Source: Salinispira sp. (GTDB lineage Bacteria; Spirochaetota; Spirochaetia; DSM-27196; Salinispiraceae). Taken from it: a DNA stretch of 64,000 nucleotides. The notes beneath the pieces were generated by a model, which was given only the letters and a program-made list of their open reading frames with translations, was not told the DNA's origin and searched no databases. This document shows positions 5,599 to 23,203 of this stretch, one piece after another. The first letter of the stretch is position 1, and the number at the start of each line of letters is the position of its first letter. The translations under genes were made by a program, and so were the position numbers. The DNA lies in the NCBI GenBank assembly GCA_965226555.1, contig CBDDDG010000021.1, positions 288,001-352,000 on the forward strand, written 5' to 3'.

Positions 5599-6633
5599 AT
5601 GAAGGTAATAGGCAAACAGGCGGCTGGCGGCGCGCCGGAGGCGCAGAACGCGCAGCAGTCAGTATCATCATCATCATCGGCGTTAGCATCAATATCACCG
5701 CCATCAAAATCCGCAAAAACACGCATACCTCTTCTTCTCAAGAGGGTGAGCCGTCAGAAAGCGCTTCAGGCCATGGCAATTCCCGGGGTGCTGTGGATGA
5801 TTATTTTCAATTACATTCCCATGTATGGAATTATCATTGCTTTCAAGGAATTTCAGACCATTCACAGCATTAACAGCGCGCCGTGGGTGGGGCTTGTGCA
5901 TTTTCAGGAACTATTCAGGGATCCTGAGTTCTTCGGTTCCCTGCGGAACACCCTCGGAATCAGCGTGCTGAAACTGCTCATCGGCTTTCCCATACCCATT
6001 ATTTTTGCCATTCTTCTGAACGAAATTACGCAGGTGGGCTTTAAGCGATGGATGCAGACTATTTCTTATTTACCGCACTTTCTTTCATGGGTTGTGCTTG
6101 GGGGCATGATGAGCACCTGGTTTTCCGAAAATGGGCTGGTCAATGAGCTTCTGACAAACACGGGGATCATAAGCGAGCCGCTCCCTTTTCTCGGGAGTCC
6201 GGACGGCTTCTGGCTCATGGCCGTGCTGTCGGAAACATGGAAGGAAATGGGCTGGGGAGCAATTATCTATCTTGCGGCAATATCGGGCATATCTCCCGCG
6301 CTCTACGATGCCGCGGTCATTGACGGCGCAAACCGCTTTCAGAAAATACGCTACATAACCCTGCCGTCCATTGCGGGAACAATTACCATTCTCCTCATTC
6401 TCGCCATTAGCGGCGCGCTCAATACCAATTTTGACCAAATGTTTGTGCTTAACAATCCTCTGAATGAATCGGCGAGCAATGTTCTGGATCTCTATGTGTA
6501 CAGAACGGGCATTCGGGGGCTTCGTCTCTCCTACGCCACTGCTGTCGGCTTGTTCAAGGCCCTTATCGCTCTGGTGCTTCTTCTTGGGGCGAACGGATTT
6601 TCAAAAAAAATACAGAACAGATCGCTGTTCTAA
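5599..6633 (+). CDS. Carbohydrate ABC transporter permease (LplB-like); true start may be downstream
   Basis: Motifs FNYIPMYG, QTISYLPHFLSWVV and EAA-loop LYDAAVIDGANRFQKI. Confidence 0.9.
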   Translation: MKVIGKQAAGGAPEAQNAQQSVSSSSSALASISPPSKSAKTRIPLLLKRVSRQKALQAMAIPGVLWMIIFNYIPMYGIIIAFKEFQTIHSINSAPWVGLVHFQELFRDPEFFGSLRNTLGISVLKLLIGFPIPIIFAILLNEITQVGFKRWMQTISYLPHFLSWVVLGGMMSTWFSENGLVNELLTNTGIISEPLPFLGSPDGFWLMAVLSETWKEMGWGAIIYLAAISGISPALYDAAVIDGANRFQKIRYITLPSIAGTITILLILAISGALNTNFDQMFVLNNPLNESASNVLDLYVYRTGIRGLRLSYATAVGLFKALIALVLLLGANGFSKKIQNRSLF

Positions 6634-6830
6634 AACAAAGTTTTGCAAAATGCAAAACTTTCTATAAAATAGGAGAATGCTAAGCACAAAGAAAGCATTC
6701 CTGACGGACGCATGGGCGAGCAGGAGGCGCAGCCTCCGACCAGCCCTCGGAAACTTTTGCTCCTGGAAATTGTGCAAGCACAATTTTCCAATGCAAAACT
6801 TTCTAAAACAAAGTTTTTTGCGGAATGCAA
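6628..6830. repeat. Composite copy of the dispersed palindromic repeat family
   Basis: Short hairpin AAAGTTTTGCA..TGCAAAACTTT, linker GAATGCTAAGCAC..AGCATTC, GC-rich module and long hairpin. Flanked by the 17-bp direct repeat TTCTAAAACAAAGTTTT (6628-6644, 6801-6817). Confidence 0.85.
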
Positions 6831-7736: not shown

Positions 7737-9365
7737 ATGAAAAGGTGTTTATTTTATATAGTAATAGTAATGTCGATGGTGATGTTACTCATGCCGCTCG
7801 CAGCAGGCGGAGGGGGCGAAGGAGGGGAACTTCCCGAGCCTAATGCCGAGCTGCTCGATCCGGATGTTCCGGGATGGACGGTTGATACCAGCCCGGTCAG
7901 TTTCGACTGGTACCTGCATTTTTCCTGGTTTCGCGGGGTGTGGGGTGAAGATCCTGTTTCCCGGTATGTTACCGAAAAAACAGGGGTGAATGTCGATTTC
8001 ATTATTCCCGCGGGTAATGAGGCCGAAAAGCTCAATACCCTCATTGCCTCGGGTAAATTGCCCGATTTTATCACCCTCGGGTGGTGGGAACCGCAGGTGA
8101 AGCAGTTGATCGCCGGCGAACTTGTGTATCCGCTCAATCAGCTCGCGGAATACTACGATCCCTATTTCTTCAATGTTGCCAACCCCGAACGGCTTGGCTG
8201 GTACACGCAGGAAGACGGTAATGTTTATTCCTACCCGAACGCTTCGTACTCGTCCGCAGACTATGAGGAACGGGAGCTGCCATCGAACCAGACCTTTCTT
8301 GTGCGCAAAGATATGTGGGAGGCCATCGGCAGCCCGGATATGCGGACTCCCGAAGGGTTCCTGCGCGCCCTCGAAGCGGCGCAGCGAATGTTTCCCGAAG
8401 TGAGCGGTCAGCCCCTCATTCCCCTCGGGCTCCATGAGTTCACCGATACCGGCAACTACTCGCTTGAGTCATATCTCATGAATTTCCTTGCCATTCCACT
8501 GGAAAAGGACGGGCAGCTCTATGACCGCTATGCCGATCCTGACTACCGACTCTGGCTTGCAACATTGCGCGAGGCCAATGAGCGCGGACTTCTTTCTTCC
8601 GATATTTTTCTGGATCGCCGTCCGCAGGTCGAAGAAAAAATTGCTCAGGGCAGATATTTTGCGCTGATCTATCAGCGCAGCGACATGATCGATTCTCAAG
8701 CCATCCGCCATCAGCAGGATCCCAATTCCATTTACATTGCTGTGGATGGACCGGCAAACAGGGCGCTCGACCCCCCGCGCTTAGCAGGGCAGGGTCTTTC
8801 CGGCTGGACAGTAACATTCATTTCCAAAACAACAGCGAACCCCGACCGCGCCATCCGTTTCATGAGCTATCTCATGAGTGAAGAAGGACAGCGCGATCTG
8901 TATTTGGGCATTGAGGGGCTTACCTGGGAAATGCGCGATGGACGCGAACAGTTCATTCCCGAGGTCGCCGAGCTTCTGAACAATGACCGCGGAGCCTTCG
9001 ACCGTGAATACGGCGCTTCGGTGAAGTACTGGATGCTCATGGATAATCCGCTCTTCGCTCAATGGGAAACCGAACCGGTAACGCCCTACAAGGAGATGTA
9101 CGAATGGACGCTGCCCTACACGGTGAGCTATGCCGTCTACGATAACATTGCCCCCCAACCCTTCGAGGAAGAGGGAATTATCGGCGCCAAGCTCAGCAGC
9201 CTGTTCGGGAAAGCCCTCCCTCAGCTCATTCGCGCCGAAAGCGAATCAGAGTTCAATGCCCTCTGGGATGAACTGCACACCGAACGCAGCGCGCTCGGCC
9301 TCGACAAACTTATCGCCTATCAACAGGAGCAGGTACATGCAAACAGAAAAAAACTTGGGCGCTAG
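7737..9365 (+). CDS. Carbohydrate ABC transporter substrate-binding protein
   Basis: Signal peptide ending in AGGGGE; family-1 SBP motifs (KLNTLIASGKLPD, YLMSEEGQ); operonic with the permeases. Confidence 0.85.
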   Translation: MKRCLFYIVIVMSMVMLLMPLAAGGGGEGGELPEPNAELLDPDVPGWTVDTSPVSFDWYLHFSWFRGVWGEDPVSRYVTEKTGVNVDFIIPAGNEAEKLNTLIASGKLPDFITLGWWEPQVKQLIAGELVYPLNQLAEYYDPYFFNVANPERLGWYTQEDGNVYSYPNASYSSADYEERELPSNQTFLVRKDMWEAIGSPDMRTPEGFLRALEAAQRMFPEVSGQPLIPLGLHEFTDTGNYSLESYLMNFLAIPLEKDGQLYDRYADPDYRLWLATLREANERGLLSSDIFLDRRPQVEEKIAQGRYFALIYQRSDMIDSQAIRHQQDPNSIYIAVDGPANRALDPPRLAGQGLSGWTVTFISKTTANPDRAIRFMSYLMSEEGQRDLYLGIEGLTWEMRDGREQFIPEVAELLNNDRGAFDREYGASVKYWMLMDNPLFAQWETEPVTPYKEMYEWTLPYTVSYAVYDNIAPQPFEEEGIIGAKLSSLFGKALPQLIRAESESEFNALWDELHTERSALGLDKLIAYQQEQVHANRKKLGR

Positions 9366-10299
9366 CTCTCATGCCGGGCACAGCTTACGGCAAAACTTCC
9401 CGCAAAATTCCCTGCAAAACTCCCGGACGCCGCGCGCGTCTGGGCAGGGGCGAACCTCCGTTGTTCCGCTCTGCGGATTCCTTGCCGCCCTGTCGCTGCT
9501 TTTTGCCTCATGCAATCCCGATCCCGGAGAACCAGGAGTGCTTGGAGAACCAAGCGCGCTCCTGTGGAGCGATGAATTCAACGGCAGCAGTGTCGATCCG
9601 TCAAAGTGGACCTTTGAAACAGGAAACGGCTGCCCGAGCCTCTGCGGCTGGGGCAACAATGAATCGCAGTACTATCAGGCGGCGAACGCGACAATTGAAG
9701 ACTTTTCGGACGGTGAACGGGGGCTGGTCATTGAAGCGCGGAAGGAAAGTGTCGGCGGATTTGGCTACACATCTGCCCGCATGAAAACCCAGGGGCTGGC
9801 AAGCTGGACCTACGGACGCTTTGAAGCCCGCATAAAACTTCCCAAGGGGCGGGGCATATGGCCTGCGTTCTGGATGCTTGGCGATAACATTACCGAGGTC
9901 GGCTGGCCTGTCTCCGGCGAAATAGACATTATGGAACTGGTCGGGCACGAACCCAACAAGGTGCACGGAACCTTTCACTACGGCGACCCCGGCCACAAAT
10001 ACGATGGCGGACACTACTCACTCCCCACCGGCGACTTCTCCGATGACTTCCACATATTTACCCTCGAATGGGAGCCCGGCGAACTCCGCTGGTATGTCGA
10101 TGGCACCCTCTACAGCCGACAAGCCGCATGGACCACATCTCTGCCCGAAGGATTCCCCGCCCCCTTCGACCGCAACTTCTTCCTTCTCCTGAACCTTGCT
10201 GTCGGAGGACAGTGGCCGGGCTACCCCGACGGTTCCACGGTATTCCCCCAGCGCATGTATGTGGATTATGTCCGCGTGTATTCTCTGGATGGAGGCTGA
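9337..10299 (+). CDS. GH16 beta-1,3-glucanase (laminarinase-type) lipoprotein; start uncertain
   Basis: WSDEFNG, GWGNNESQYY, WPAFWMLG, catalytic EIDIME and NLAVGGQWPG; lipobox LLFASC. ATG 9337 has AGGAG upstream. Confidence 0.9.
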   Translation: MQTEKNLGASSHAGHSLRQNFPQNSLQNSRTPRASGQGRTSVVPLCGFLAALSLLFASCNPDPGEPGVLGEPSALLWSDEFNGSSVDPSKWTFETGNGCPSLCGWGNNESQYYQAANATIEDFSDGERGLVIEARKESVGGFGYTSARMKTQGLASWTYGRFEARIKLPKGRGIWPAFWMLGDNITEVGWPVSGEIDIMELVGHEPNKVHGTFHYGDPGHKYDGGHYSLPTGDFSDDFHIFTLEWEPGELRWYVDGTLYSRQAAWTTSLPEGFPAPFDRNFFLLLNLAVGGQWPGYPDGSTVFPQRMYVDYVRVYSLDGG

Positions 10300-10372
10300 C
10301 AACTGACCTGAATTTGATCTGATTGTGATCCGATTCGTCCTGAATTTTGGGACGAATCGGATTTATAAAAAT
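10207..10372 (+). repeat. Direct repeat A, copy 1 (GH16 3' end plus a 13-bp-stem hairpin)
   Basis: Near-identical to 11579-11744. Contains ATCCGATTCGTCC-N9-GGACGAATCGGAT (10328-10362). Confidence 0.95.
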
Positions 10373-10440
10373 TTCTCAAAATTCGATTATCTATCAATCA
10401 TCCGTGACATTTCTCCTGTTATATATGTAGAGAGGAAATT

Positions 10441-11553
10441 TTGCATACGGCAAAATTTTCAAAGCGAGTGTGCCATCAACATGGCGGGCTCAATATAATG
10501 AGGATGAATGATATGTCCATTATCAATTTTACTTTTGGAGCCGATGGAAATTCTGTCGGGAATGCGGATTCCGATGTTAATGCGGATTCCGATGCCATCC
10601 ACAATCCCTACGATAAGGGCTGGCGAGAACTTCTGAGCTACAAGGAAGGAACGCGTCAACTTTTGCAAAGGTTTTTCACATTCAACTGGCCGCGGAATGT
10701 GAAGGCGGATGATATTACCATTATCCCCACTACATTCATTAGCTCGCACTGGAAGGACAGCATTCCAGATATGATGTACCAAATTACGTTGCGAGAGCCG
10801 GACAGGGTGGGCTATGTTCTCATTGAGCATCAGTCCACGGTGGATAAATCAATGCTCAATCGATTTTTGAATTACAGTAACCTTCTGAGCCAGTGCCTGC
10901 TGAAAGTCGGCGACATACAGCCCGGAGAATTTCCTTCCGTTTTTCCCATTTTGTTGTATACTGGTGATAAGAAGTGGACGGTTTCCACGAGTTTCCGCGA
11001 GCTGGATGATCTGGAGGGTTTTCAGATACTGGGGTCGGGGTTTCAATACCATACGATTCTCGTGAACGAAATGTCTGATGAGCAACTCCAACAGATAGGC
11101 GGGGTATTGGCGGCTGTTATGTATGTCGGCAGACAGCCGAGCACCATGTTTATTGATGTGGAGCAGCGCCCGCAAATACTGGCAAAAATTGGCGCTATGA
11201 TCGCAGATGAAACTTCAGAAATGCTGAATATATTTGCCAGTGTAATAGCAATGATGTTCGGGTTTCGAATAAGCCCGCAGGAAATTGAAAAACACATACA
11301 AACAGGAGAGGAGGTAACAACCATGATTAAACTTGTAGCCGATGAAATTTTCGAATACGGTCTCGCAAAGGGCCGCACTGAAGGGCGCACTGAAGGCCGC
11401 ACGGAAGGGCATCGGGAAGAACGGATGAAAAACGCCAGCGGTATGTTTTCCGAAGGATTTTCAGCCGAAGTCGTTCGGAGGATTACCGGATTGAGCGATG
11501 AGGAAATTCGGGCATTGCAAAACGGTCGGGCATTACAGAATGGATCGCATTGA
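10441..11553 (+). CDS. Rpn/YhgA-like PD-(D/E)XK nuclease (long form); start uncertain
   Basis: HNPYDKGWR, PDMMY, LIEHQSTVD, PILLYTG, and the typical GRTEG repeat tail with ITGLS. Confidence 0.85.
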   Translation: MHTAKFSKRVCHQHGGLNIMRMNDMSIINFTFGADGNSVGNADSDVNADSDAIHNPYDKGWRELLSYKEGTRQLLQRFFTFNWPRNVKADDITIIPTTFISSHWKDSIPDMMYQITLREPDRVGYVLIEHQSTVDKSMLNRFLNYSNLLSQCLLKVGDIQPGEFPSVFPILLYTGDKKWTVSTSFRELDDLEGFQILGSGFQYHTILVNEMSDEQLQQIGGVLAAVMYVGRQPSTMFIDVEQRPQILAKIGAMIADETSEMLNIFASVIAMMFGFRISPQEIEKHIQTGEEVTTMIKLVADEIFEYGLAKGRTEGRTEGRTEGHREERMKNASGMFSEGFSAEVVRRITGLSDEEIRALQNGRALQNGSH

Positions 11554-11568
11554 TTGGCAGTAATGCGC
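11273..11568 (+). repeat. Direct repeat B, copy 1 (rpn 3' end)
   Basis: Near-identical to 15397-15680 except for one extra 12-bp unit. Confidence 0.95.
11323..11553 (+). CDS. Internal in-frame small protein (RpnS-like, 76 aa)
   Basis: Strong SD AGGAGAGGAGGT 7 nt before in-frame ATG 11323, matching the described Rpn gene-within-gene arrangement. Confidence 0.7.
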   Translation: MIKLVADEIFEYGLAKGRTEGRTEGRTEGHREERMKNASGMFSEGFSAEVVRRITGLSDEEIRALQNGRALQNGSH

Positions 11569-11578
11569 TGAAATGAGC

Positions 11579-11744
11579 GGACAGTGGCCGGGCTACCCCG
11601 ACGGTTCCACGGTATTCCCCCAGCGCATGTATGTGGATTATGTCCGCGTGTATTCTCTGGATGGAGGCTGACAACTGACCTAAATTTGATCTATTATCAA
11701 TTCGATTCGTCCTGAATTTTGGGACGAATCGGATTTATAAAAAT
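11579..11744 (+). repeat. Direct repeat A, copy 2
   Basis: Copy of 10207-10372 with a few changes near the hairpin. Confidence 0.95.
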
Positions 11745-11760
11745 GTATAGAGGAGTATTG

Positions 11761-11988
11761 ATGATGAATGTTCTGGATGCAGCCGAACACGTATTAAAAG
11801 AAGCAGGGAAACCCCTCCATGCCAGAGATATTGCCAAGCGGATGATTGAAACCGGATTGTGGTCAACTATTGCTAAAAATCAGAAGAAAGTTCTCGTTTC
11901 CTATATTTGTCAAGATATGAAAAAATGGGGTGATAAATCGCGCTTTATACGGGTAGCTCCCAACACTTTTAACCTTCGAGATGTTTAA
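11761..11988 (+). CDS. Stand-alone HARE-HTH (restriction-associated winged helix) protein
   Basis: DAAEHVLKEAGKPLHARDI...SRFIRVAPNTFNL pattern; SD GAGGAG. Confidence 0.75.
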   Translation: MMNVLDAAEHVLKEAGKPLHARDIAKRMIETGLWSTIAKNQKKVLVSYICQDMKKWGDKSRFIRVAPNTFNLRDV

Positions 11989-11993
11989 CGATT

Positions 11994-13382
11994 ATGGCGC
12001 CAAACAACCCATTAACGCCTGATAGTCAAATACTGACAGTGGAGAAACTTCTTTCCATTGAGAATTTGACCATTCCCGTATATCAGCGGCCGTACAAGTG
12101 GACAGGAAAGAACGTTAACCAGCTTTTCACCGACATTGCAACTCACAAGGACAAATCCTCTTATCGTCTCGGAACAATTGTCTTTCATCAGGATGGTGTC
12201 CGAAAAAATATTGTCGATGGACAGCAGAGAATAATTACACTTTTACTGACTGTTCGCGCATTACTCATACTTCGCAATGACAAAATTGAACGCAGCGATC
12301 TGAAGGAACAGTTGAATTCGCTGGAGCAGAACATGATAAACCCCTGCTTCAAAAATAAAATTTCCAAAAATAACATACACAAAAATTATCTTGAAATTTT
12401 CCGCATTATCGCCCGATCCGATTTTACTGAAGAGCACATCAATTTCCTTTTGAATAAATGCGCAGTCGTCACTTTTACGTTGAATGATATTTCCGAAGCC
12501 TTCCAATTCTTTGATTCCCAGAATGCGCGTGGGCGCGATCTTGAACCGCATGATCTGCTGAAAGCTTATCACCTGCGGGAATTCAGTTCGGATGATGAAC
12601 AGGAGAAGGCTTCCACTGTTGAAGAATGGGAAAGTAGTGAAACAAAGGAACTGGCTAATCTCTTTTCACAATATTTATATCGCATCCGCAACTGGTCGAA
12701 GGGGGCTTCCGCCCGTTATTTTGGCAAAGAAGATACAGAATTGTTTAAAGGCGTCAACATGGAAAAAATAGAACGCTATCCCTATGTTGAACAGTTGCGC
12801 ATAGTACACCGTTTTATTGATCATTATAAACGGCAATACGAACGCAGTATTGATGGTCATACCCGCAGTTTTCCGTTTCATTTAGATCAAACCATCATCA
12901 ACGGCAGGCGCTTTTTTGAGATGATTACGCACTATCAGAAAATGATATGCAACTATAACTGCTCTGTTGCTGATTCCCAATCATTAATTACAATGGAAAA
13001 TCTGAATGGGTATTCAGAAGCGATATTGGAAACTATTAACGACTATACGGGTTGTAAACGCACCGGAGATCGATATGTTCGAACAATTTTCGATTGCCTG
13101 CTGATCTATTATATTGACAAATTCGGGCATGCAGAAATATCCCGAGCAATCGAAAAGATTTTTATTTGGGCATACAGCCTTCGTCTGAAAATGCAGGTGG
13201 TTCATCTTGCCAGTATGGATAACTACGTTCTGAAAAATAACCTCTTTGAGCTTATTAAAGATGCTATTCACCCCACTGACTTTATCAATTGCCCTCTTCA
13301 GGGTTTATTGGAGGTAAAATCTACCAAAACCGAGAAAATTAACAAATTATTTAGTAAGATGAAATATTTGGAGCAACAATAA
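11994..13382 (+). CDS. DUF262 (GmrS-like) domain protein
   Basis: IPVYQRPYKW, IVDGQQR and FDSQNARGRDL motifs. Confidence 0.85.
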   Translation: MAPNNPLTPDSQILTVEKLLSIENLTIPVYQRPYKWTGKNVNQLFTDIATHKDKSSYRLGTIVFHQDGVRKNIVDGQQRIITLLLTVRALLILRNDKIERSDLKEQLNSLEQNMINPCFKNKISKNNIHKNYLEIFRIIARSDFTEEHINFLLNKCAVVTFTLNDISEAFQFFDSQNARGRDLEPHDLLKAYHLREFSSDDEQEKASTVEEWESSETKELANLFSQYLYRIRNWSKGASARYFGKEDTELFKGVNMEKIERYPYVEQLRIVHRFIDHYKRQYERSIDGHTRSFPFHLDQTIINGRRFFEMITHYQKMICNYNCSVADSQSLITMENLNGYSEAILETINDYTGCKRTGDRYVRTIFDCLLIYYIDKFGHAEISRAIEKIFIWAYSLRLKMQVVHLASMDNYVLKNNLFELIKDAIHPTDFINCPLQGLLEVKSTKTEKINKLFSKMKYLEQQ

Positions 13383-13384
13383 TA

Positions 13385-15412
13385 ATGAGTAACAGTAACG
13401 AAATTTCACAACTTTCCGTCCGTGAGCTTCTCGAAAGCGGAGACAAATATATTATCCCCATGTATCAGCGGAATTATGCATGGGACGAGGGCGAAATTAC
13501 ACAACTAATACAGGACATTATTGATTATCTTCCAGAAAAACGTAACTACTACATCGGCACACTTGTCGTTTTCAAAAGGCCTGACACTGACAAGCTTGAC
13601 GAATCTGGCGGATATGAAACCATTGACGGTCAGCAGAGGGTGACCACTTTGGCCCTGTTGGCATCGTATCTGAAAAATGAACGAGTTAATGGAGGATTAT
13701 GCGATATTTCATGGTTAACGCAGTTGCCAATTACATTCGATAGCCGGAAAAAATCACAGAAGACTTTTGATAAAATTTTCACTGGCAAATTCAAAGATGA
13801 CTCTACAGAACATATTGACTCCGAGGAGATAAATACCGCTATTCTGAACGGATATCATCTTATCCAGAAAAATCTCCCTCTGAAACTTGCCGAAAGGGAC
13901 ATTGTACCACAAAAATTTTCCAATTTTTTATTCGACAATGTTCAGATTATGAGAGTGATGGTTCCCGAAGATACCGACATGAATCATTATTTTGAGATCA
14001 TGAATAATCGGGGCGAGCAGTTGGAAAAACATGAAATACTCAAATCTCGGATGCTGGAGACTCTTAAGAACGATAAAGACAGTCAGAACTGCCTTTCCAA
14101 CGTATGGGAAGTGTGTGAGAACATGGAAAAATATGCGCAGATGGGTTTTTCACTGTCTCAACGCAATGCTTTTTTTAAAGAGAAGAATTGGGATTCTTTC
14201 GCTGTGAACAATTTTAGGGAACTTAGTGAGAAAATAAAGCAAATAGGGGGAGAATCAAAAAGCGACGTTAATGATACAGAGCAACTTACTGAAATTATTA
14301 CAGGGTATCGAAGTAGTGCTGATAGCCAACAACGTAACGAGGATGATGGATCATCAGAGCGATTTAACTCCATAATCAATTTCCCCAATTTTCTGTTGCA
14401 TGTTTTACGAGTTCAGACAGGAAAGGATATACCATTGGATGATAAAAGGCTCATCTCAACGTTCGAAGAACACGTGCTCAAAAAAAATGATGCCTCAGAA
14501 AAAATTAAGGAGTTTATCTTCAATCTGCTTCGCTGCAAATTCCTGTACGACAAATATATTATTAAGCGCGAATTCATTAAGGGAAATGACCGTTGGAGTC
14601 TCAAACGCCTTAAATGGAATGAAGGTGGTGTAAAAAATCGCTCCGGCCGCGGATCGTATGTGAATACTTTTGGCAAGGAGGATGACGCTGAAGACGATGA
14701 AGCAGAAAACAGAAAAATTCTCATGCTTCTCTCCGCTTTCCATGTTTCCACACCTACTCGTGTCTATAAACACTGGCTTAACGCTGCGCTACATTATCTA
14801 TTCACTACCGAAATAGTTCTCTGCGAGAAAATTCAACCTGCCGCATACCTACTTCATCTGGAATCTGTGGCTAAATCATTCGTGTTTGATCGTTTTCTGG
14901 CAGCAGATGGCGGACTGGACTATTTTGACATAATTTACACGAAGAAGGGTATTTGCCAAGCGCGAAAAGAAACCATATCGGAAGAAACAATGGACGACAA
15001 ACTTTCTTTCGGCAAAATTGAGAACAACTTAGTATTCAATTTTCTCGACTATCTTTTGTGGCTTGAGTATCGGCATAAGAGTCATGTTCAGAATTATGAA
15101 TTCACGTTTCGGAGTTCGGTGGAACATTACTATCCTCAGCACCCATTGCCCGGATATAAAAAGTTGTCGGCAGAAACACTACATTCATTTGGAAACCTCT
15201 GTTTAATCAGCCACAGTAAAAATTCACGGCTCAGCAATTACATGCCAAAGGCAAAAAATGATCATTATCAACAGAATACAATCGATAGTGTGAAACAACA
15301 TTTAATGATGAAGATGACGGATAATGCAGGCTGGGATAAAGGGAGCATTACCGATCACTTCAAAGATATGAAAAAGGTATTTCTCCAAGCATTAGGGCCC
15401 GCAGGAAATTGA
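13385..15412 (+). CDS. DUF262 + DUF1524 (HNH) GmrSD-like nuclease
   Basis: IPMYQRNYAW, IDGQQR, FEIMNNRG and C-terminal SVEHYYPQ...GNLCLIS..NSRLSN. The stop codon lies inside repeat B copy 2. Confidence 0.85.
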   Translation: MSNSNEISQLSVRELLESGDKYIIPMYQRNYAWDEGEITQLIQDIIDYLPEKRNYYIGTLVVFKRPDTDKLDESGGYETIDGQQRVTTLALLASYLKNERVNGGLCDISWLTQLPITFDSRKKSQKTFDKIFTGKFKDDSTEHIDSEEINTAILNGYHLIQKNLPLKLAERDIVPQKFSNFLFDNVQIMRVMVPEDTDMNHYFEIMNNRGEQLEKHEILKSRMLETLKNDKDSQNCLSNVWEVCENMEKYAQMGFSLSQRNAFFKEKNWDSFAVNNFRELSEKIKQIGGESKSDVNDTEQLTEIITGYRSSADSQQRNEDDGSSERFNSIINFPNFLLHVLRVQTGKDIPLDDKRLISTFEEHVLKKNDASEKIKEFIFNLLRCKFLYDKYIIKREFIKGNDRWSLKRLKWNEGGVKNRSGRGSYVNTFGKEDDAEDDEAENRKILMLLSAFHVSTPTRVYKHWLNAALHYLFTTEIVLCEKIQPAAYLLHLESVAKSFVFDRFLAADGGLDYFDIIYTKKGICQARKETISEETMDDKLSFGKIENNLVFNFLDYLLWLEYRHKSHVQNYEFTFRSSVEHYYPQHPLPGYKKLSAETLHSFGNLCLISHSKNSRLSNYMPKAKNDHYQQNTIDSVKQHLMMKMTDNAGWDKGSITDHFKDMKKVFLQALGPAGN

Positions 15413-15680
15413 AAAACACATACAAACAGGAGAGGAGGTAACAACCATGATTAAACTTGTAGCCGATGAAATTTTCGAATACGGTCTCGCAAAGGGGCGC
15501 ACTGAAGGCCGCACGGAAGGGCATCGGGAAGAACGGATGAAAAACGCCAGCGGTATGTTTTCCGAAGGATTTTCAGCCGAAGTCGTTCGGAGGATTACCG
15601 GATTGAGCGATGAGGAAATTCGGGCATTGCAAAACGGTCGGGCATTACAGAATGGATCGCATTGATTGGCAGTAATGCGC
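15397..15680 (+). repeat. Direct repeat B, copy 2
   Basis: Copy of 11273-11568 lacking one 12-bp unit. Confidence 0.95.
15447..15665 (+). CDS. Orphan RpnS-like small protein (72 aa)
   Basis: Same SD and sequence as 11323-11553, minus one GRTE unit. Confidence 0.65.
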   Translation: MIKLVADEIFEYGLAKGRTEGRTEGHREERMKNASGMFSEGFSAEVVRRITGLSDEEIRALQNGRALQNGSH

Positions 15681-15795
15681 GGGCGAGCGGGAGAATCTGC
15701 CCATCCTCATCATTGTGGAAAAAATCATACAAAAACAGAGAATTATGATACGCTGAGTCTCAATCGCCTCGTCAGAAGGAGGAGATGGAGCAGGC

Positions 15796-17076
15796 ATGAG
15801 CAGAAACGTTGACGAACAATCTATTCCGAACACCGGGTTTCAAACGCTGGACGAGTTCCTCTGGAAGTCGGTTTTGAATGTTGAGGAGCAGAGGAATCCG
15901 GCGAAGGCGCTGGAGAAAATGGGGCTGCTTGTTGCCGATGAGGGCGGGTCGCAGCGCGCTTCTGTCGCTGGCATTTTGATGTGCGCTGAAAATCCTGAAA
16001 CATGGCTGCCGAATGCCTGCATAAAGGCGACATGTTATCGGGGAAAGGATCGCGCGTCCGGGCACATTGATTCGGCTGATATTACCGGTTCCGTTGTGAA
16101 GCAGATTTCGGGAGCGGTTGACTTTGCGGTAAAAAATATGCGGGTCGCAGCGAGGAAGGCGCCGGCGCGGGAGAATTTGCCGCAATACAGTGAAGAATCC
16201 CTGTTTGAGGCCATTGTGAACGCTGTCATCCATCGAGATTATTCAATAAAGGGAGAGAGCATCCGTCTATCAATGTTTGAAGATCGATTGGAAATACAAT
16301 CGCCCGGAAAACTGCTCAACGGAGTGACCGATGAGAACTTGGCAAGCCGACAGGCCACACGAAACGAAGTGCTGGTGAAAATTTTATCGCGCATGCCCGT
16401 TGCCGGCATGAAGGGAACGCAGAACAGGGCATACATTCTGGAGGGGCGGGGGAACGGCATACCCATCATCCAGAAGAAAACCGAAGAACTCAGCGGTAAG
16501 CAGCCGCAGTTCAAAACCATTGATAATGCGGTCTTTCAGGTTACCATTCCGGCTGCAATTCTGGAGCATGTTCCCATACAGACCGCCGTAACTGCCTACC
16601 ACGAGGGGCGCCCCGCAGCAGATATTTGCATACTGGCGCTGTTTCCGAATAAAACAGGGAAGGAAGCGGTAAGCGATGCGGAGGGCAGGGCGATATTGAA
16701 CCTGCATTCCTCCCATTTGCCGATGACCGTGTTTGCGGCCGGCAGCGGCTATGCAGCGAAAATAGAACGGAACTGGATACCCTCCGAGCGCGCCCTTGCC
16801 CTTAACCTGCGGAAACTCCCGGGGGGCGGGTCGCTTATTTTTTCTGATGCGACAGGCTGCATTCCCAATGTGTCCGGGCGCCTGAATCCGATTCGGGATG
16901 CCGATGACCGCACATATCTCTATGCCGCAAACATTTCCATTAACGAGGGCAGGCAGCAGCCGGTTCACTTCTCCTTCGGGGAAGACCTGAGGCTTACCGA
17001 TGCGGAGGGACGGGGCGCTGTCGTTCGCATTGTCGAAATCATCGGACAATCGGCTGTTGTGGAATATGAGCGGTGA
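15796..17076 (+). CDS. HATPase_c_4-type ATP-binding protein, apparently lacking the usual N-terminal AlbA/Schlafen domain
   Basis: EAIVNAVIHRDYS, FEDRLEIQSPGKL and EGRGNGI motifs. Confidence 0.7.
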   Translation: MSRNVDEQSIPNTGFQTLDEFLWKSVLNVEEQRNPAKALEKMGLLVADEGGSQRASVAGILMCAENPETWLPNACIKATCYRGKDRASGHIDSADITGSVVKQISGAVDFAVKNMRVAARKAPARENLPQYSEESLFEAIVNAVIHRDYSIKGESIRLSMFEDRLEIQSPGKLLNGVTDENLASRQATRNEVLVKILSRMPVAGMKGTQNRAYILEGRGNGIPIIQKKTEELSGKQPQFKTIDNAVFQVTIPAAILEHVPIQTAVTAYHEGRPAADICILALFPNKTGKEAVSDAEGRAILNLHSSHLPMTVFAAGSGYAAKIERNWIPSERALALNLRKLPGGGSLIFSDATGCIPNVSGRLNPIRDADDRTYLYAANISINEGRQQPVHFSFGEDLRLTDAEGRGAVVRIVEIIGQSAVVEYER

Positions 17077-17138
17077 TGATAATATCAGCGGTGAGAAGGT
17101 TTTGCGTTTTGCAAAACTTTGTTTGAATTGATACGGAG

Positions 17139-18200
17139 GTGATGACGATGTCATTGCAAACACAGATAGCAAAGATACGCGAAAAGTTAAACAAGCGCGA
17201 GTACGCCAACGAGCAGGCGGTATCGCAGGGCATTGTTGTGCATCTGTTGCAGACAATGAGCTGGCAAACGCAGGAAACGGACAAAGTTTGCCCGCAGTAT
17301 ACGGTTAGGGGCGGACGGGTCGATTTTGCGTTGTGCGTAAATCCAAACGAACCGGTTATTTTTATTGAGGTTAAGCAGCCCGGCGGAATTGATGACGCGG
17401 ACACACAGTTGTTTGAGTATGCGTTTAAGCAATCTTTCCATGGAAGCGTCGATGTTGCGGTCGCGACCGATGGACGGGAATGGCGTTTTTACTGGCCCTC
17501 TGGCAGCGGCAGTTATGAGAAACGGCGGTTTTGCGTTGTGGATTTTCTCGAAGACGATGCCAAAAAAGCGGCGGCAAAGTTACAGCGCTATTTGTCGTGG
17601 GAAAACGTTCGCAGCAAGCAGGCCTTACGAAACGCGAAAAACGATTATGAAGAGTTCTGCAATAAACGCGAAACATGGGAACATATTCCAAAGGCATGCG
17701 CAAAGTTGATGGCGGAACACCGCGATGCGGTTGTTCGCGCGGTATCGGAAAAAGTTAAAACCTTATGCGGCCACACTCCCGCAGATGAGCAAATTACTGA
17801 ATTTCTGGAGACCCTGTCTTTCGAATCCAGATCGGAAAGCGGCGACACATCGCCTCACAAAAAGAGAAGCCTCTCAGGCAAAAAAACGCCGCCACAGTCG
17901 CGAAGCGGCAACAGAGAGAAGATAAGGGTAATTTTCCCCAACGGCCATGAAATATACAACAATGCTGTAACGACAACGTTTGTCGATACCTTGCGCACAA
18001 TCGGCTTCGCCAAAGCGGCGCGGGCGGAGATCATGATAGCTGGGCATCCGTTAATATCGAAGGAACAGCACAAGCCACAGTGGAAAGATGTTGGCGACGG
18101 CTTCTTTGTGTGCACGCATTCCAGCACTAAGGGAAAAATTGAACAACTTCAGAAAATAAGTGAGCGCTTACATGTGAATTTGAAAATTCAAACCTGTTGA
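17139..18200 (+). CDS. HsdR-N-like PD-(D/E)XK nuclease domain protein with a C-terminal accessory domain
   Basis: RVDFAL...FIEVK, QLFEYAF and ATDGREWRFY motifs; SD GGAGGT. Confidence 0.7.
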   Translation: MMTMSLQTQIAKIREKLNKREYANEQAVSQGIVVHLLQTMSWQTQETDKVCPQYTVRGGRVDFALCVNPNEPVIFIEVKQPGGIDDADTQLFEYAFKQSFHGSVDVAVATDGREWRFYWPSGSGSYEKRRFCVVDFLEDDAKKAAAKLQRYLSWENVRSKQALRNAKNDYEEFCNKRETWEHIPKACAKLMAEHRDAVVRAVSEKVKTLCGHTPADEQITEFLETLSFESRSESGDTSPHKKRSLSGKKTPPQSRSGNREKIRVIFPNGHEIYNNAVTTTFVDTLRTIGFAKAARAEIMIAGHPLISKEQHKPQWKDVGDGFFVCTHSSTKGKIEQLQKISERLHVNLKIQTC

Positions 18201-18218
18201 GTCTTGCGGAGGATGAAC

Positions 18219-19022
18219 ATGAAAAAAGTACTATTGCTATTCGGTATTGTCGGCATGATATTTATGACAGCCTGCGATCCTGATATTGTAACACCATCAC
18301 CCGAACCCGATCCCGGAATCAGCACGCCCGAACCTGAACCGGGAGAACCCGAGCCCGGAGTCAGCCCCCCCGAACCTGAACCGGGAGAACCCGATCCCGA
18401 AGACAGTGGATACGAGATACTGGAAACTCGGTACTTGTTTGCTGATTATGAACATGGTGGACTGACGTGGAAAGGCGGCACAAACTTAACAATATTCATA
18501 CCTTCCGGGCGAGTGCGATCCGGTGTATTGGCATATCGGCAACAAATAGATGGGGTATATTATATTTCCGAATATCCGCAGGCATATTTATCGACGCTAT
18601 ATTTTAATATCCCGATAACATTTTATGATTCAGGACAGGTGGCATCAGGATATTTATCTGAAACGCAGCAGATAGGAGGGATATATTTTGCTGCTAATCA
18701 TACAGCTTTTCATGATTCAGGACAGGTGGCAAGCGGATATCTATCTGAAACGCAGCAGATAGGAGGGATATATTTTTCTTCTGTTAATATCATGGCTTTT
18801 TATGATTCAGGACAGGTGGCAGGCGGATGGCTATCTGAAACGCAACAGATAAGGGGAATATATTTTGCTGCTAATCTCATATCTTTCTATGATTCAGGTC
18901 AGGTTGCGTCAGGATATTTATCTGAAGATCAACAAATTGATGGACAATGTTACGGAGGGTACATCACCTTTAATGAAGATGGGACAGTATCGGACGGCAC
19001 TGTCGGAACCGACTGTTCATAA
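18219..19022 (+). CDS. Lipoprotein with a PEP/PGE linker and about 29-30 aa FYDSGQVASGYLSE repeats
   Basis: MKKVLLL...MTAC lipobox; four near-identical DNA repeats of about 87-90 bp at 18620-18950. Confidence 0.75.
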   Translation: MKKVLLLFGIVGMIFMTACDPDIVTPSPEPDPGISTPEPEPGEPEPGVSPPEPEPGEPDPEDSGYEILETRYLFADYEHGGLTWKGGTNLTIFIPSGRVRSGVLAYRQQIDGVYYISEYPQAYLSTLYFNIPITFYDSGQVASGYLSETQQIGGIYFAANHTAFHDSGQVASGYLSETQQIGGIYFSSVNIMAFYDSGQVAGGWLSETQQIRGIYFAANLISFYDSGQVASGYLSEDQQIDGQCYGGYITFNEDGTVSDGTVGTDCS

Positions 19023-19039
19023 TATATTTTCTTGCTTTA

Positions 19040-19488
19040 ACACAGGCAACCCCAAAAGCACGTTTACCCTGAAAACATTGCCCGAAACCGCCGCATTTCA
19101 GCAGCGGGTAACAACCCTCGGTGCGAAGAAAAGAAGCGCGAGCAATAATAAAAAACTCGCCGCCCTCGCGGAAACGTGGAAGCCTCTTGCGGGGCAGAGT
19201 CGGGACATTGCGAAGTTCATTGAGCATCTTCATAGGCTCATTGAGAAAAATTTGGAAACAGTGGAGGGCACTTATAATGCGCGGAAGCATAAGACCTTGG
19301 ACAGCAGAAAAATTCGGAACAATGTGAAGGTGCTCAATGAGAGGCGGAAGGCGCTCGTTGAGTCTCTCAATTTAGCGCATTATTTTCACCGGCAAGCGCA
19401 ATGGCTGCTGGAGCGCTTTCCGGCGGGGGTGTATTGCGATGTTGAGGGTCTTTGTAAGCGTGTTGATATTTCCGAAATAAAAAATAAT
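19040..19488 (+). pseudogene. Fragment resembling the C-terminus of a type I RM methyltransferase (HsdM)
   Basis: YFHRQAQWLLERFPAGVYCDVEGLCKRVDISEI resembles HsdM C-termini. There is no start or catalytic region, and it breaks at a palindromic repeat at 19490. Confidence 0.55.
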
Positions 19489-19566
19489 AGAAAATTTTGC
19501 AGAGCAAACTTTTCAGTAGCAAAACTTTGTTATAATGTAAAAGTATTCCAATGTGGTGCAGCTGAA

Positions 19567-20892
19567 TTACTGCCCCGAAAATTCCGGATGTTCCTCAAGA
19601 ATCGGCAGTATGCTGTGTCCATCGGATATTCCATCAAGCTTCAAAATTTCTTCTACAGCCCTGTGTAATGCTTCTTCCACAACCACATGGGTAATAATTA
19701 CCAGCGGCAGTCCCGAATCCGTTTCACTGTCCGCATGCTGCAGAATGGAACTGACACTTATATTGTAGTTTGCGAGAATGGCGGTAAGTCCGGCGAGTAT
19801 GCCCGACTGATCCTTGAGTTGGAAACGAATGTAGTAGGGCCGCTGTATTTCTGCGGGCGGAAGCTGATTGGACTCATTACTCATGTCCGGCCATGTCCGC
19901 AGGGTGTTGAACAGTGCCGGATAGCTGCCGTTGGCAATACTCAGAACATCGGCAACCACCGCCGATGCAGTAGGAGAACCGCCTGCCCCTCTACCATAAT
20001 ACATGGTATGACCAACACTGTGCCCATATACGCTTATGGCGTTGAAGGATCCGGCGACCCATGCGAGCGGATGCTCCTCTGCGATGAAGGCGGGTTCGAC
20101 CCGCAAAAAGCAGCCTTCCGGTGTTTTCAGCGCAGAGGCAATGAGTTTAATCGTAAAACCCATTTCGGCTCCGAGAACCAAGTCGACAGACTGGAGCTTG
20201 TCGATGCCGGTAACAGGAATTTTGCTGAAATCCATCGCCTCGCCGAAGGCCAGTCCGCCCATTATGGCAATTTTATGCGCTGAATCGCTTCCGTTTACAT
20301 CGAGGCTGGGATCCGCTTCGGCAAGTCCATCTGCCTGAGCCTGGGAGAGCGCATCACCATAGCTCTGCCCCTTTGTGGACATTTCTGTGAGAATATAATT
20401 GCAGGTACCATTCACAATACCAAAAAGCGCGTCAATTTTGTTTGCCGCAAGACCATCAATAAGTGTCCTAATAATCGGAATACCGCCTCCGCAGCTTGCC
20501 TCAAAGGCGATGCAGACCTTATTTTTCCGGGCAGTCGCGTACAGTTCCCGTCCGTAATGCGCAAGAAGCGCTTTATTCGCCGTAACAACATGTTTTCCGG
20601 CCTCAAGCGATTGTATTATCAGCCTTCGGGCAAAATCGGTTCCGCCGACTAATTCAATAATTATCTCTACCTCAGGATCATCGAGCGCAGCCTGCAGTTC
20701 ATATTCAAATAGTTCCGGTGGGAGAGCGCAGTCTTCGGCATGGGCAAAATCTCTATCCACAATGTACTTCAAATATGTATCTATTCCGCTGCGAGCACAT
20801 CGATCTTTCCGATCCTTAAGAATAAGTTGTGCGACACTGCTGCCGACTGTTCCGCAGCCGATGAGAGCGATTGCTATGGTATGTGTGTGCAT
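19567..20892 (-). CDS. hom: Homoserine dehydrogenase with ACT domain
   Basis: GCGTVG, VVTANKA, FEASCGGGIP, NGTCNYIL and GAGGSPTASAV motifs. Confidence 0.95.
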   Translation of the reverse strand: MHTHTIAIALIGCGTVGSSVAQLILKDRKDRCARSGIDTYLKYIVDRDFAHAEDCALPPELFEYELQAALDDPEVEIIIELVGGTDFARRLIIQSLEAGKHVVTANKALLAHYGRELYATARKNKVCIAFEASCGGGIPIIRTLIDGLAANKIDALFGIVNGTCNYILTEMSTKGQSYGDALSQAQADGLAEADPSLDVNGSDSAHKIAIMGGLAFGEAMDFSKIPVTGIDKLQSVDLVLGAEMGFTIKLIASALKTPEGCFLRVEPAFIAEEHPLAWVAGSFNAISVYGHSVGHTMYYGRGAGGSPTASAVVADVLSIANGSYPALFNTLRTWPDMSNESNQLPPAEIQRPYYIRFQLKDQSGILAGLTAILANYNISVSSILQHADSETDSGLPLVIITHVVVEEALHRAVEEILKLDGISDGHSILPILEEHPEFSGQ

Positions 20893-20986: not shown

Positions 20987-21793
20987 CTAGAAGCCTGATG
21001 TTACATTTCCGTTTTCATCAAAGGAAATAGGTGAACTCCAATAATGCTCGTAATCGTCTATGATCTGATCTTTGGCAGATTTTCCCCCTGCTATCTGTCC
21101 GTTTTCATAAAAACTAATGTCAAATCCGCCTTGATAGGTTACGCCGTCTATGGTGGTGTCTTTGGCAAGGGTTCCGCGTTTAAACCGTCCGTTTTCATAA
21201 AAGAAAATATCACTACTATAACTAATGCCCTGATAGGTTACTCCGTTTATTTCCGTATTCTTGGCAAGCCATCCTTGTTTTATCTGTCCGTTTTCATAAA
21301 AGTGAATATTTTTTACAGTTTTGTATGTTGTGCCGTCTATGGTCTGGTCTCCGGCAAGGGTTCCCTCCTTCACCTGCCTGTTTTTATAAAATTGAATGTC
21401 CTTTCCGGCTTTGTATGTTATGCCGTCTATGGTCTGGTTTCCTATGGTCCGGTCTCCGACGAGGGTTCCCTCTACTAGCTGTCCGTTTTCATAAAATTTA
21501 ATGATGTATTGCCCGCCTTCATAGGTTACGCCGTCTATGATCTGGTTTCCTGCAAAGGTTCCCTCTTTTACTTGCCCGTTTTCATAAAATCTAATTTTAT
21601 AACCGCTCTTATAGGTTATGCTGTCTATGATCTGCTCTCCGGCAAGGGTTCCCTCCTTCACCTGCCCGTTTTCGTAATAATATGTAGGAATACTTTTATA
21701 GATTATGCCGTTTATTGTTGTTTCACTGAAGGCTACCTGCCCGGCGGTCAATATCATAATTACCATAATTGATAGTATTGTTAGTTTTCGCAT
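20987..21793 (-). CDS. Secreted protein made of about 8 FYENGQ..EGTLA..IDG.TY repeats
   Basis: Signal peptide, SD AGGAG, and repeats visible in both DNA and protein. Confidence 0.8.
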   Translation of the reverse strand: MRKLTILSIMVIMILTAGQVAFSETTINGIIYKSIPTYYYENGQVKEGTLAGEQIIDSITYKSGYKIRFYENGQVKEGTFAGNQIIDGVTYEGGQYIIKFYENGQLVEGTLVGDRTIGNQTIDGITYKAGKDIQFYKNRQVKEGTLAGDQTIDGTTYKTVKNIHFYENGQIKQGWLAKNTEINGVTYQGISYSSDIFFYENGRFKRGTLAKDTTIDGVTYQGGFDISFYENGQIAGGKSAKDQIIDDYEHYWSSPISFDENGNVTSGF

Positions 21794-22012: not shown

Positions 22013-23203
22013 TTATCCCGACTGCAACCGATTGATCAAAAAACACATTCTCTGCATGTTGTAGACCACATCTCCCAAACCAATCTCAAATCTCGCTCTC
22101 TTCAGTCCCTTCCGCCTGACCTGCCGAAATCTCAATGCTCCCTTTCGGTGGGCAAACACATGTTCCACACGGCAGCGAATCTTCGACCACTGGGTATTCT
22201 CCCGCTTCTGCTCATCGCTTATCGGATTGTCCCGCGTCCCCTTGTGCAGTATTCGGCTTTTGCCCTTACCCGCTATCTCGGTGACAACCTTCTCGCAGGG
22301 CTCTCCCCAATAGCCTTTGTCCGCATATACTTCCTGCCCGCTGTCCTGCTCAGGATTCAGTACACGCCCGAGAGACTGCGAATCATGCACCGATGCCGGT
22401 GTCGCATGGAAGGTGAGAACACACTTCGATCCATTATCAATCTTTATGGTGTGGGAATAGCCAAAGAAGAATCTCCCCCGCCGTTTTGTCTTATTCGCAT
22501 CTTTATCGACTTGGCGATCCCGGTGAATCTCCTGCGTTGATGGGTCATCATGCTCTGTCGTATCGCCGGGACGATCCGTAGAAAGCTTTACCCGACGCTG
22601 GGGAGCTTCAATGATCTCGGCATCAATAATCCGACCGTCATTAACAATCAGCTCTTTATCACTCAGCTCCGCGGTAAAGCGCTCGAACAACTCATCAATT
22701 ACTCCTGCCTGCGTCAGCTTTTCCCGAAACTCCCATATCGAAACTTTTGCTACTGGAAATTGTGCAGAGCACAATTTCCAGTAGCAAAAGTTTCAGATTC
22801 AGAATGTTTTCTATGTGCTAAGCATTCTCCTATTTTATAGAAAGTTTTGCCTCAGGCAAAACTTTCATATTGTTTTCTCATCTGGAACGGTATCTTCACT
22901 CGTTATCCCCAGAAAACCCCGAAAACTTGATCGGTCTTCAACCTGAAACTCCAATTCGGCATCGGAAAAATTATAGAGACGGCTAAGAATCAGCATTTTG
23001 AACTTCAGAATTAGGTCAAATCCCGGGCGGCCTCCCGGACCGCGGGGGGTTCCCTTAATGGCTTTCGTGAGAATGGGAAGAAACATACTCCAATTAATAT
23101 GCTTATTTAGCGACAACAGTTTGTTTCGCTTCTCTAATCGGTGTAACCGTTCCTGTTCTGCTCTGTCAGAAAATGATAATTGAGTGTTCATGCCTGCCTC
23201 CAA
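22013..23203 (-). pseudogene. IS5-family transposase split by a 132-bp insertion
   Basis: The N-part ends VPDEKTI and the C-part resumes WEFREKL. Motifs IIDA, YADKGY and RVEHVF are present. Confidence 0.9.
22740..22866. mobile_element. Palindromic MITE-like element inserted in the transposase
   Basis: 26-bp perfect-stem hairpin (22740-22794), linker, and 13-bp-stem hairpin (22840-22866); ATAT duplicated on the flanks. Confidence 0.85.

Follow-up and report, generated by a model that had tools for sequence, protein, structure and literature searches.

A TgvAB-like restriction cassette between an rpn gene and a stand-alone copy of its antitoxin end in Salinispira: probable scar of an rpn duplication

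How did a foreign restriction cassette come to lie between an rpn gene and a second copy of that gene's 3′ end? The question is raised by a locus in a 64,000-nucleotide stretch of Salinispira sp. (assembly GCA_965226555.1, contig CBDDDG010000021.1, positions 288,001 to 352,000), called the window below and used for all coordinates that carry no contig label. Behind a GH16 glycoside hydrolase gene, the final gene of a sugar ABC-transport cluster, unit 1 reads A-rpn-B and unit 2 reads A′-cassette-B′, an arrangement of two interleaved pairs of direct repeats in which the unit order is the one given by the assembly (Table 1). An earlier interpretation, the sequence-only reading, took this for an Rpn-linked cassette exchange system. 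We argue instead that, probably, an rpn unit of 1,372 bp was duplicated in tandem and the foreign cassette displaced one of the toxin halves through ordinary illegitimate recombination. The locus is real, recent and tidy and its mechanism most likely ordinary, a scar of known parts and known kinds of event.

Repeats, rpn gene and cassette

Genome alignments bear out the lengths and positions first reported for the repeats. A and A′ are 166 bp each and 96.4% identical (E 5e-71 in a search against the whole genome), and B (296 bp) matches B′ (284 bp) with E 1e-136, base for base save for one 12-bp repeat unit. The eight A/A′ mismatches are ungapped and all fall inside 10310-10330, a 21-bp cluster of a tightness reached by none of 200,000 random placements. 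The 2.98-Mb genome holds no third copy of A. Repeat A, its hairpin and the B-to-A′ junction are unique to this locus in the genome, and the final 130 bp of the coding part of B show 74-82% likeness to more than 100 rpn tails.

Part R, which has no counterpart in unit 2, measures 900 bp and comprises 140 bp 5′ of the rpn ATG and about 254 of the 346 codons. The cassette had been said to replace exactly the nuclease-coding part; the toxin part is indeed gone, but more than the nuclease domain is missing. The spacing of 10 bp between the units is likewise right in length, but rather than a separate element the spacer is probably where B ends, overlapping the start of A′ by 2 bases, because this spacer resembles the sequence 3′ of B′: GAGCGG lies 4-6 bases on, both after B and after B′, and its final GG is also the start of A.

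Table 1. Features of the locus in window coordinates
Feature	Position	Strand	Evidence or content
GH16 glycoside hydrolase gene	9340..10299	+	PF00722 E 1.5e-24; open reading frame list; intact; start codon uncertain
Repeat A	10207..10372	+	Last 93 bp of GH16 and a 73-bp noncoding part, the latter missing from the empty allele
Hairpin inside A, possible terminator	10328..10362	.	13-bp stem; DNA fold z −4.8 (A), −3.5 (A′)
R, rpn upstream region and toxin-coding 5′ part (nuclease domain, linker)	10373..11272	+	Missing from unit 2
rpn	10513..11553	+	346 aa (370 from upstream TTG); PF04754 (Transposase_31) E 9e-20
Repeat B, last linker codons, internal ribosome-binding site, RpnS frame	11273..11568	+	
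Junction B to A′	11569..11578	+	Junction contig in runs X1, X2
Repeat A′, noncoding GH16 remnant and hairpin	11579..11744	+	
HARE-HTH stub	11761..11988	+	75 aa; Pfam; remnant of a 346-aa HARE-HTH/Mrr gene
tgvA-like gene (DUF262 and DUF7834)	11994..13382	+	462 aa; Pfam GmrSD_N and DUF7834
tgvB-like gene (DUF262 and DUF1524 His-Me nuclease)	13385..15412	+	675 aa; Pfam GmrSD_N and GmrSD_C
Repeat B′ with predicted stand-alone RpnS gene	15397..15680	+	
21-bp tail, right edge of the whole 5.4-kb insertion	15681..15701	+	Not in the empty allele; joint 10299 to 15702 in run X4
HATPase_c_4 gene	15796..17076	+	Pfam; directly 3′ of GH16 in the empty allele
HSDR_N gene	17139..18200	+	Pfam

The gene of unit 1 is identified as a true rpn, a member of the toxin-antitoxin family. 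It scores 54.6 bits against TIGR01784 (cut-off 52.1), residues D86, E105, H106 and Q107 are invariant in all seven aligned Rpn proteins, and the protein has the conserved D, D and E-x-Q positions, residues being matched to RpnA numbering by motif order and not by direct alignment. According to PMC10400941, rpn genes are not transposases; they encode toxin-antitoxin defense nucleases with an internally started antitoxin, RpnS. The present protein is a divergent member whose closest relative is a 45% paralog in the same genome. A protein search returned 14 proteins, 13 of them at 22-29%, metagenomes yielded two distant loci (26% and 36%), and a PDB search gave no match for Rpn. The acidic N-terminal extension of the protein is encoded in part by an 18-bp tandem repeat (10561-10596). 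Upstream of the gene, 10391-10460 shows 80% identity to sequence that precedes an unrelated gene (C1:246448-246515).

The internal start of RpnS is predicted from GGAGG seven bases 5′ of ATG 11323, and the frame that it would open (11323-11553) encodes 76 aa with three GRTE repeats. Such an internal ribosome-binding site occurs in 90 of 115 rpn open reading frames and in 122 of 1,348 other long ones in the genome, and the number of four-residue repeats runs from 1 to 11 across the 115 paralogs. B′ begins 50 bp 5′ of the corresponding start and holds the same signal, GGAGG seven bases 5′ of ATG 15447, with the whole RpnS frame (15447-15665, 72 aa, two GRTE repeats) 34 bp 3′ of the tgvB stop, a feature absent from the sequence-only reading. 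By signal and frame, B′ is a complete, predicted stand-alone RpnS antitoxin gene. Stand-alone RpnS genes downstream of a parent rpn, such as ypaA, are published, and neutralization by RpnS is reported to be lost when repeat numbers differ (PMC10400941); the B′ RpnS, with one repeat fewer, is therefore predicted not to neutralize the neighboring RpnL. With two antitoxins that differ by one four-residue repeat, the locus offers a natural test pair for the repeat-number rule of RpnS specificity.

From its genes the cassette is identified as a type IV restriction pair of the TgvAB kind that follows an mrr stub, with a predicted action against phages with modified cytosines. Homology to TgvAB was assigned through a neighboring gene, not by comparison with the Vibrio cholerae proteins: the 68%-identical plasmid gene AWQ22_RS15765 adjoins AWQ22_15760, a VC1766 match in Table S5 of PMC11411939. 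The DUF262 motifs YQR (positions 30 and 27 in TgvA and TgvB) and DGQQR (75 and 81) are in place, FxxxN is read from the alignment in both proteins, and TgvB has His-Me finger residues H581, N604 and N613. PADLOC reports GmrSD-like models that cover the DUF262 part only, NCBIfam has no model for the two genes, and the PDB search for TgvB gave distant DUF262/SspE matches only. Among 80 related loci, two of which ended too early, a tgvB relative lies directly 3′ of the tgvA relative in 77 of the 78 with room for it (one miss had a match just below the length cut), and the full 346-aa HARE-HTH/mrr gene stands 5′ of tgvA in two (L016 and L080).

At about 72% DNA identity (72% over 3.4 kb for L016), the nearest counterparts of the cassette belong to unrelated phyla, which argues that it is foreign. 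It is AT-richer, as first described, at 39.8% guanine plus cytosine compared with 52.4% for the upstream operon. Its last stop codon (15410-15412) does come from B′, together with the last five residues of TgvB; the conserved TgvB end is intact and the replaced part is the variable tail only.

Alleles in public runs

Allele and depth evidence comes from public contigs of four runs, X1 to X4. The first matter that it bears on is whether two strain alleles were simply joined end to end during assembly. The genome is listed as 93.5% complete with 6.67% contamination, none of the listed contigs covers the stretch from end to end, and the listed pieces of X1 and X2 (47 further pieces are not shown) contain no A-specific variant bases, all of which would suit an artifact. 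Against this, a 70-base contig (11539-11608) spans the B-to-A′ junction at depth 4.7 in X1 and 13 in X2, and both B lengths are present in the sample's runs. Two alleles collapsed to a bubble give no B-to-A′ junction, and the locus is therefore not a two-strain bubble. X1 and X2 may be the source sample, in which case the junction is present in reads yet not independently supported. The junction is close in depth to the single-copy parts, namely the rpn-specific contig (3.7 and 9.0) and the cassette (5.5 and 10.0), whereas A and B have about double. An assembly artifact is scarcely credible, and the same junction disfavors the two-strain chimera that the sequence-only reading had raised against its own proposal.

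An empty site is observed in run X4, which derives from another study and a related strain about 94% identical over the GH16 end. A single contig of depth 4.6 passes from the GH16 stop at 10299 through 14 other bases to 15702. This allele retains only the 93 coding bases of A and is without noncoding A, hairpin, rpn, B and cassette; its HATPase gene is without 196 bp. In run X3 a loose end departs at the same GH16 stop, has the first six of X4's 14 bases in common and then differs, which points to a third allele. A further X3 contig joins R to the shorter B, with three unaligned end bases; a B × B′ collapse and a low-depth graph path would both fit. The locus is thus variable between strains, but not as cargo between A and B: where different cargo had been anticipated at the GH16 3′ locus, the X4 relative is empty instead. 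Both units carry the noncoding part of A that is missing from the other alleles, which argues that both descend from one derived allele, and the near identity of B and B′ argues further that this allele is recent.

Depth in X1 and X2 climbs from GH16 (3.2 and 5.6) to the HATPase gene (8.0 and 14.6), contig depth not being copy number. Cassette depth in these contigs is not above that of the flanks and gives no sign of amplification. No switching and no collapsed, excised or amplified form is seen in the contigs, where collapsed paths look alike. Positions 9400-17100, compared with 30 other genomes, none of them of the same genus, matched five, all within GH16 only; a degenerate pattern for the GH16 end had no match in metagenome contigs.

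Origin of the locus

A dedicated Rpn-linked exchange system would use A and B as recombination ends and swap the cargo between them to switch defense state. The geometry permits this, and the sequence-only reading had it right: A × A′ recombination would delete rpn and leave GH16 whole, and B × B′ would delete or amplify the cassette. The site is also variable between strains, and no integrase is in view, as stated earlier: the tyrosine recombinase family PF00589 has no match on C21, the contig of the locus (three genome matches lie on C2 and C12), and the resolvase family PF00239 has none in the genome, at 93.5% completeness. The proposal nevertheless fails on what the ends and the relatives look like. 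The X4 relative is without the ends altogether, and A is unique and mostly GH16 coding sequence. No rpn match lies near the relatives of the first cassette gene at any of the 80 loci, within the DNA fetched. The expectation that other rpn loci would share the design does not hold either: 16 loci are C-terminal-only, five of them directly behind a full rpn, and a foreign cassette between such a locus and an identical cognate copy is found at one of the 16, the present locus.

Interleaving is also found without rpn, at C22:9988-15698 and C10:299928-302479. The former has two hsdS-like genes with different middles and a 2.9-kb insert of two or three genes between them, and the other reads as a duplication with internal deletions. 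A dedicated exchange system is, on these grounds, highly improbable.

The wider rpn complement of the genome fits a simpler course. An iterated profile finds 203 rpn loci, of which 139 span the full model and 53 of these are single reading frames; many lie in tandem arrays, and many are broken at recurring model positions. A same-strand rpn neighbor lies within 2.5 kb of 56 of 147 rpn genes, at spacings of 1,086-2,181 bp. The 1,372-bp spacing of the present unit is inside that range and so fits tandem rpn duplication, the process by which rpn arrays are reported to arise (PMC10400941).

Starting from an empty site in which GH16 runs straight into the HATPase gene, the state observed in the related strain, we infer the following order of events and the enzymes behind them. 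An rpn gene with its upstream hairpin would have entered at the GH16 stop. The block A-rpn-B would then have doubled, joined at two common bases (GG), either locally or by single-crossover integration of trimmed, recircularized kin DNA. In one copy, a 3.65-kb cassette would have taken the place of 900 bp with the rpn start and toxin; doubling and replacement may have come in either order. A toxin-antitoxin gene that loses its toxin but keeps its antitoxin does no harm. Today the locus would carry stacked defenses, RpnLS and TgvAB, plus a spare RpnS read as the last cassette gene, and its repeats would be passive RecA substrates for deletion or amplification, with nothing to program either. The recA, comEC and dprA families are present in the genome. 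Single-crossover integration of trimmed, recircularized fragments left partial duplications in 56 of 60 E. coli clones, 109-950 bp long in the 14 sequenced (PMC3240628), merodiploids made by transformation are a further precedent for duplication (PMC3784515), and displacement of a type VI secretion system (T6SS) effector with its immunity gene kept is a proposed precedent for the replacement (PMC5361080).

Local duplications elsewhere in the genome bear on this reading from both sides. Direct-repeat pairs number 285, of which 21 have at least 50 bp of two-copy-only sequence and, after overlaps are merged, enclose 16 spacers. The 11 spacers without a full rpn hold other genes or short stretches (open reading frames annotated by reading) and count for an ordinary, rpn-blind process. 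Non-rpn genes lie inside 62-197-bp gene-end duplications at C16:11119-12908, C16:1778-2688, C21:83722-85525, C22:286534-288122 and C23:34974-35982; one of these genes is lipoprotein-like, occurs in several copies and lies next to a gyrase-like 5′ region that is duplicated. Junctions at three sites have 6-9 bases in common with paralogs, which also favors the ordinary process. A full rpn is enclosed in the other five spacers compared with 0.36 expected, a number reached in none of 20,000 random placements; the null places genes at random over the genome without allowing for the large part that rpn makes up of its accessory gene content, and the test is post hoc.

This enrichment weighs against the duplication reading unless rpn dominates the mobile gene pool, and four further points do so as well. 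No intermediate allele (A-rpn-B alone or A′-cassette-B′ alone) was found in the genomes, metagenome contigs or runs searched, and the event order is to that extent unsupported by alleles. The right edge of the cassette lies 50 bp before the RpnS start and spares the ribosome-binding site, an outcome that calls for selection or good luck. Nothing in this reading accounts for the clustered A/A′ changes, and the empty allele is one low-depth contig.

Four of the enclosed rpn genes lie elsewhere, inside 62-226-bp duplications at C10:162113-164173, C10:234589-236002, C21:116354-118470 and C25:4086-5835, with native context on both outer sides. The duplication at C10:234589-236002 consists of the opening 153 bp of an hsdR-like gene, and six common bases link the rpn tail to the start of that gene. 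These sites favor a different order, in which insertions were stacked and the cassette came first. Cassette and hairpin would have entered at the GH16 stop, rpn would have been copied in next, duplicating the 166 bp of A as its target in the manner of those four loci, and B′ would stem from a later duplication of B-A′-cassette followed by deletion. Such a mode of insertion is published for restriction-modification genes (PMC2853133), and the clustered changes in A′ create a weak promoter-like site (11668-11697) beside the cassette's ribosome-binding site. The promoter scan, however, is at chance level (4 sites found against 3.9 expected), no close source paralog for rpn exists (best 45%), and one event more than in the duplication reading is needed to place an identical B′ 4 kb downstream. 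We regard a cassette-first course as possible but unlikely. The terminator scan is likewise at chance level and did not call the A hairpin, whose copy in A′ has one mismatch in the 13-bp stem; apart from these hairpins, folding of the junction regions gave nothing beyond shuffles (z −0.9 to 0.3).

The enclosed genes could also reflect an activity of Rpn itself. Leaky Rpn nicking would make 3′ ends that prime template switching, and rpn would spread and trap cargo with long duplications and no fixed cassette format. RpnA promotes RecA-independent recombination and leaves priming ends (PMC5350276), a full rpn sits inside five of 16 unique duplications, and the 139 full-span loci compare with 0-6 Pfam matches in each of 30 relatives. 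However, 11 of the 16 duplications are without rpn and a lipoprotein family bears the same scar, the enrichment null ignores the large share of rpn among accessory genes, and only 53 of the 139 full-span loci are single reading frames. Moreover, PMC10400941, in the part available, found neither target duplications nor autonomous transposition for rpn. Nicking as the driver is accordingly quite improbable.

A broader version, which we likewise hold to be a long shot, casts rpn genes as selfish nuclease elements. Their own nicks would copy them into new sites with 60-230-bp target duplications, defense cassettes could replace the toxin, and the orphan RpnS would drift in repeat number as spare immunity against other Rpn alleles. 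Were this so, an incoming cassette could safely replace the toxin because the antitoxin sits inside the gene's 3′ end, selfish copying would explain the roughly 139 full-span copies, and rpn loci would be landing pads that build defense islands. The mode of rpn movement is open in print, and about 139 full-span copies, five of them in long unique duplications, make it studiable within one lineage. The rpn expansion with its long flanking duplications is the larger lead, and the locus deserves attention for the same reason.

Known systems and neighboring features

Of the modes in print, insertion with long target duplication comes nearest; it is described for restriction-modification genes of types I-IV, and its long repeats allow amplification (PMC2853133). 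The locus resembles it in its defense genes, type IV included, in direct repeats above 30 bp (166 and 284 bp), in inserts below 20 kb (1.2 and 3.8 kb) and in having no mobility gene inside, as judged from Pfam contents. It differs in having two interleaved repeat pairs, one repeat being an antitoxin gene. Where that mode leaves exactly one repeat copy in the empty allele, X4 has the 93 coding bases of A and no B, so this is not one target copied once.

The RpnL/RpnS genes of PMC10400941 resemble the locus in their nuclease domain, in an internal ribosome-binding site with its Met, and in four-residue repeats of variable number. They too are found clustered with defense genes, in regions duplicated in tandem, and with a second cognate RpnS copy downstream. 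Here, by contrast, a foreign three-gene cassette puts 4 kb between the parent gene and the stand-alone copy, which is shorter by one repeat, and the genome has about 139 full-span loci compared with the 26 given there as a high example. TgvAB of V. cholerae VPI-2 (PMC11411939), a type IV system directed at phages with glucosylated hydroxymethylcytosine, has the same order of a DUF262 gene and a DUF262-DUF1524 gene and the same QR, DGQQR and His-Me finger motifs; the present pair lies outside a type I restriction-modification operon, behind an mrr stub, and takes its last five residues from an rpn repeat.

In T6SS effector displacement, too, a toxin gives way to an arriving module while its antitoxin stays in place downstream, and the proposed route is homology-facilitated illegitimate recombination with no integrase (PMC5361080). 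The present case differs in that its antitoxin gene is nested in the toxin gene, the arriving module encodes restriction, and the old toxin survives intact upstream. Unlike an integron-like or integrative element, the locus has no linked recombinase on C21 and no recurring recombination ends. The parts of the locus and the kinds of event are known. Their arrangement, a foreign cassette lying between rpn and a repeat-variant orphan RpnS, was not met in the literature searched, although Dataset S1 of PMC10400941 may list such cases.

Several minor features of the window and genome were recorded along the way. Short A/T-rich palindromic repeats lie at 6633-6668, 6750-6817, 10435-10466, 17094-17127 and 19503-19528, and such repeats also sit in frame inside many rpn genes elsewhere in the genome. 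Positions 15796-19668 hold more defense-island debris, in which the HATPase_c_4 and HSDR_N genes are followed by a repeat-rich lipoprotein-like gene and a type I methyltransferase fragment. Farther downstream are a gene for a MORN-like repeat protein with internal repeats of about 90 bp (20987-21793) and a DDE transposase split across two reading frames (22013-23203).

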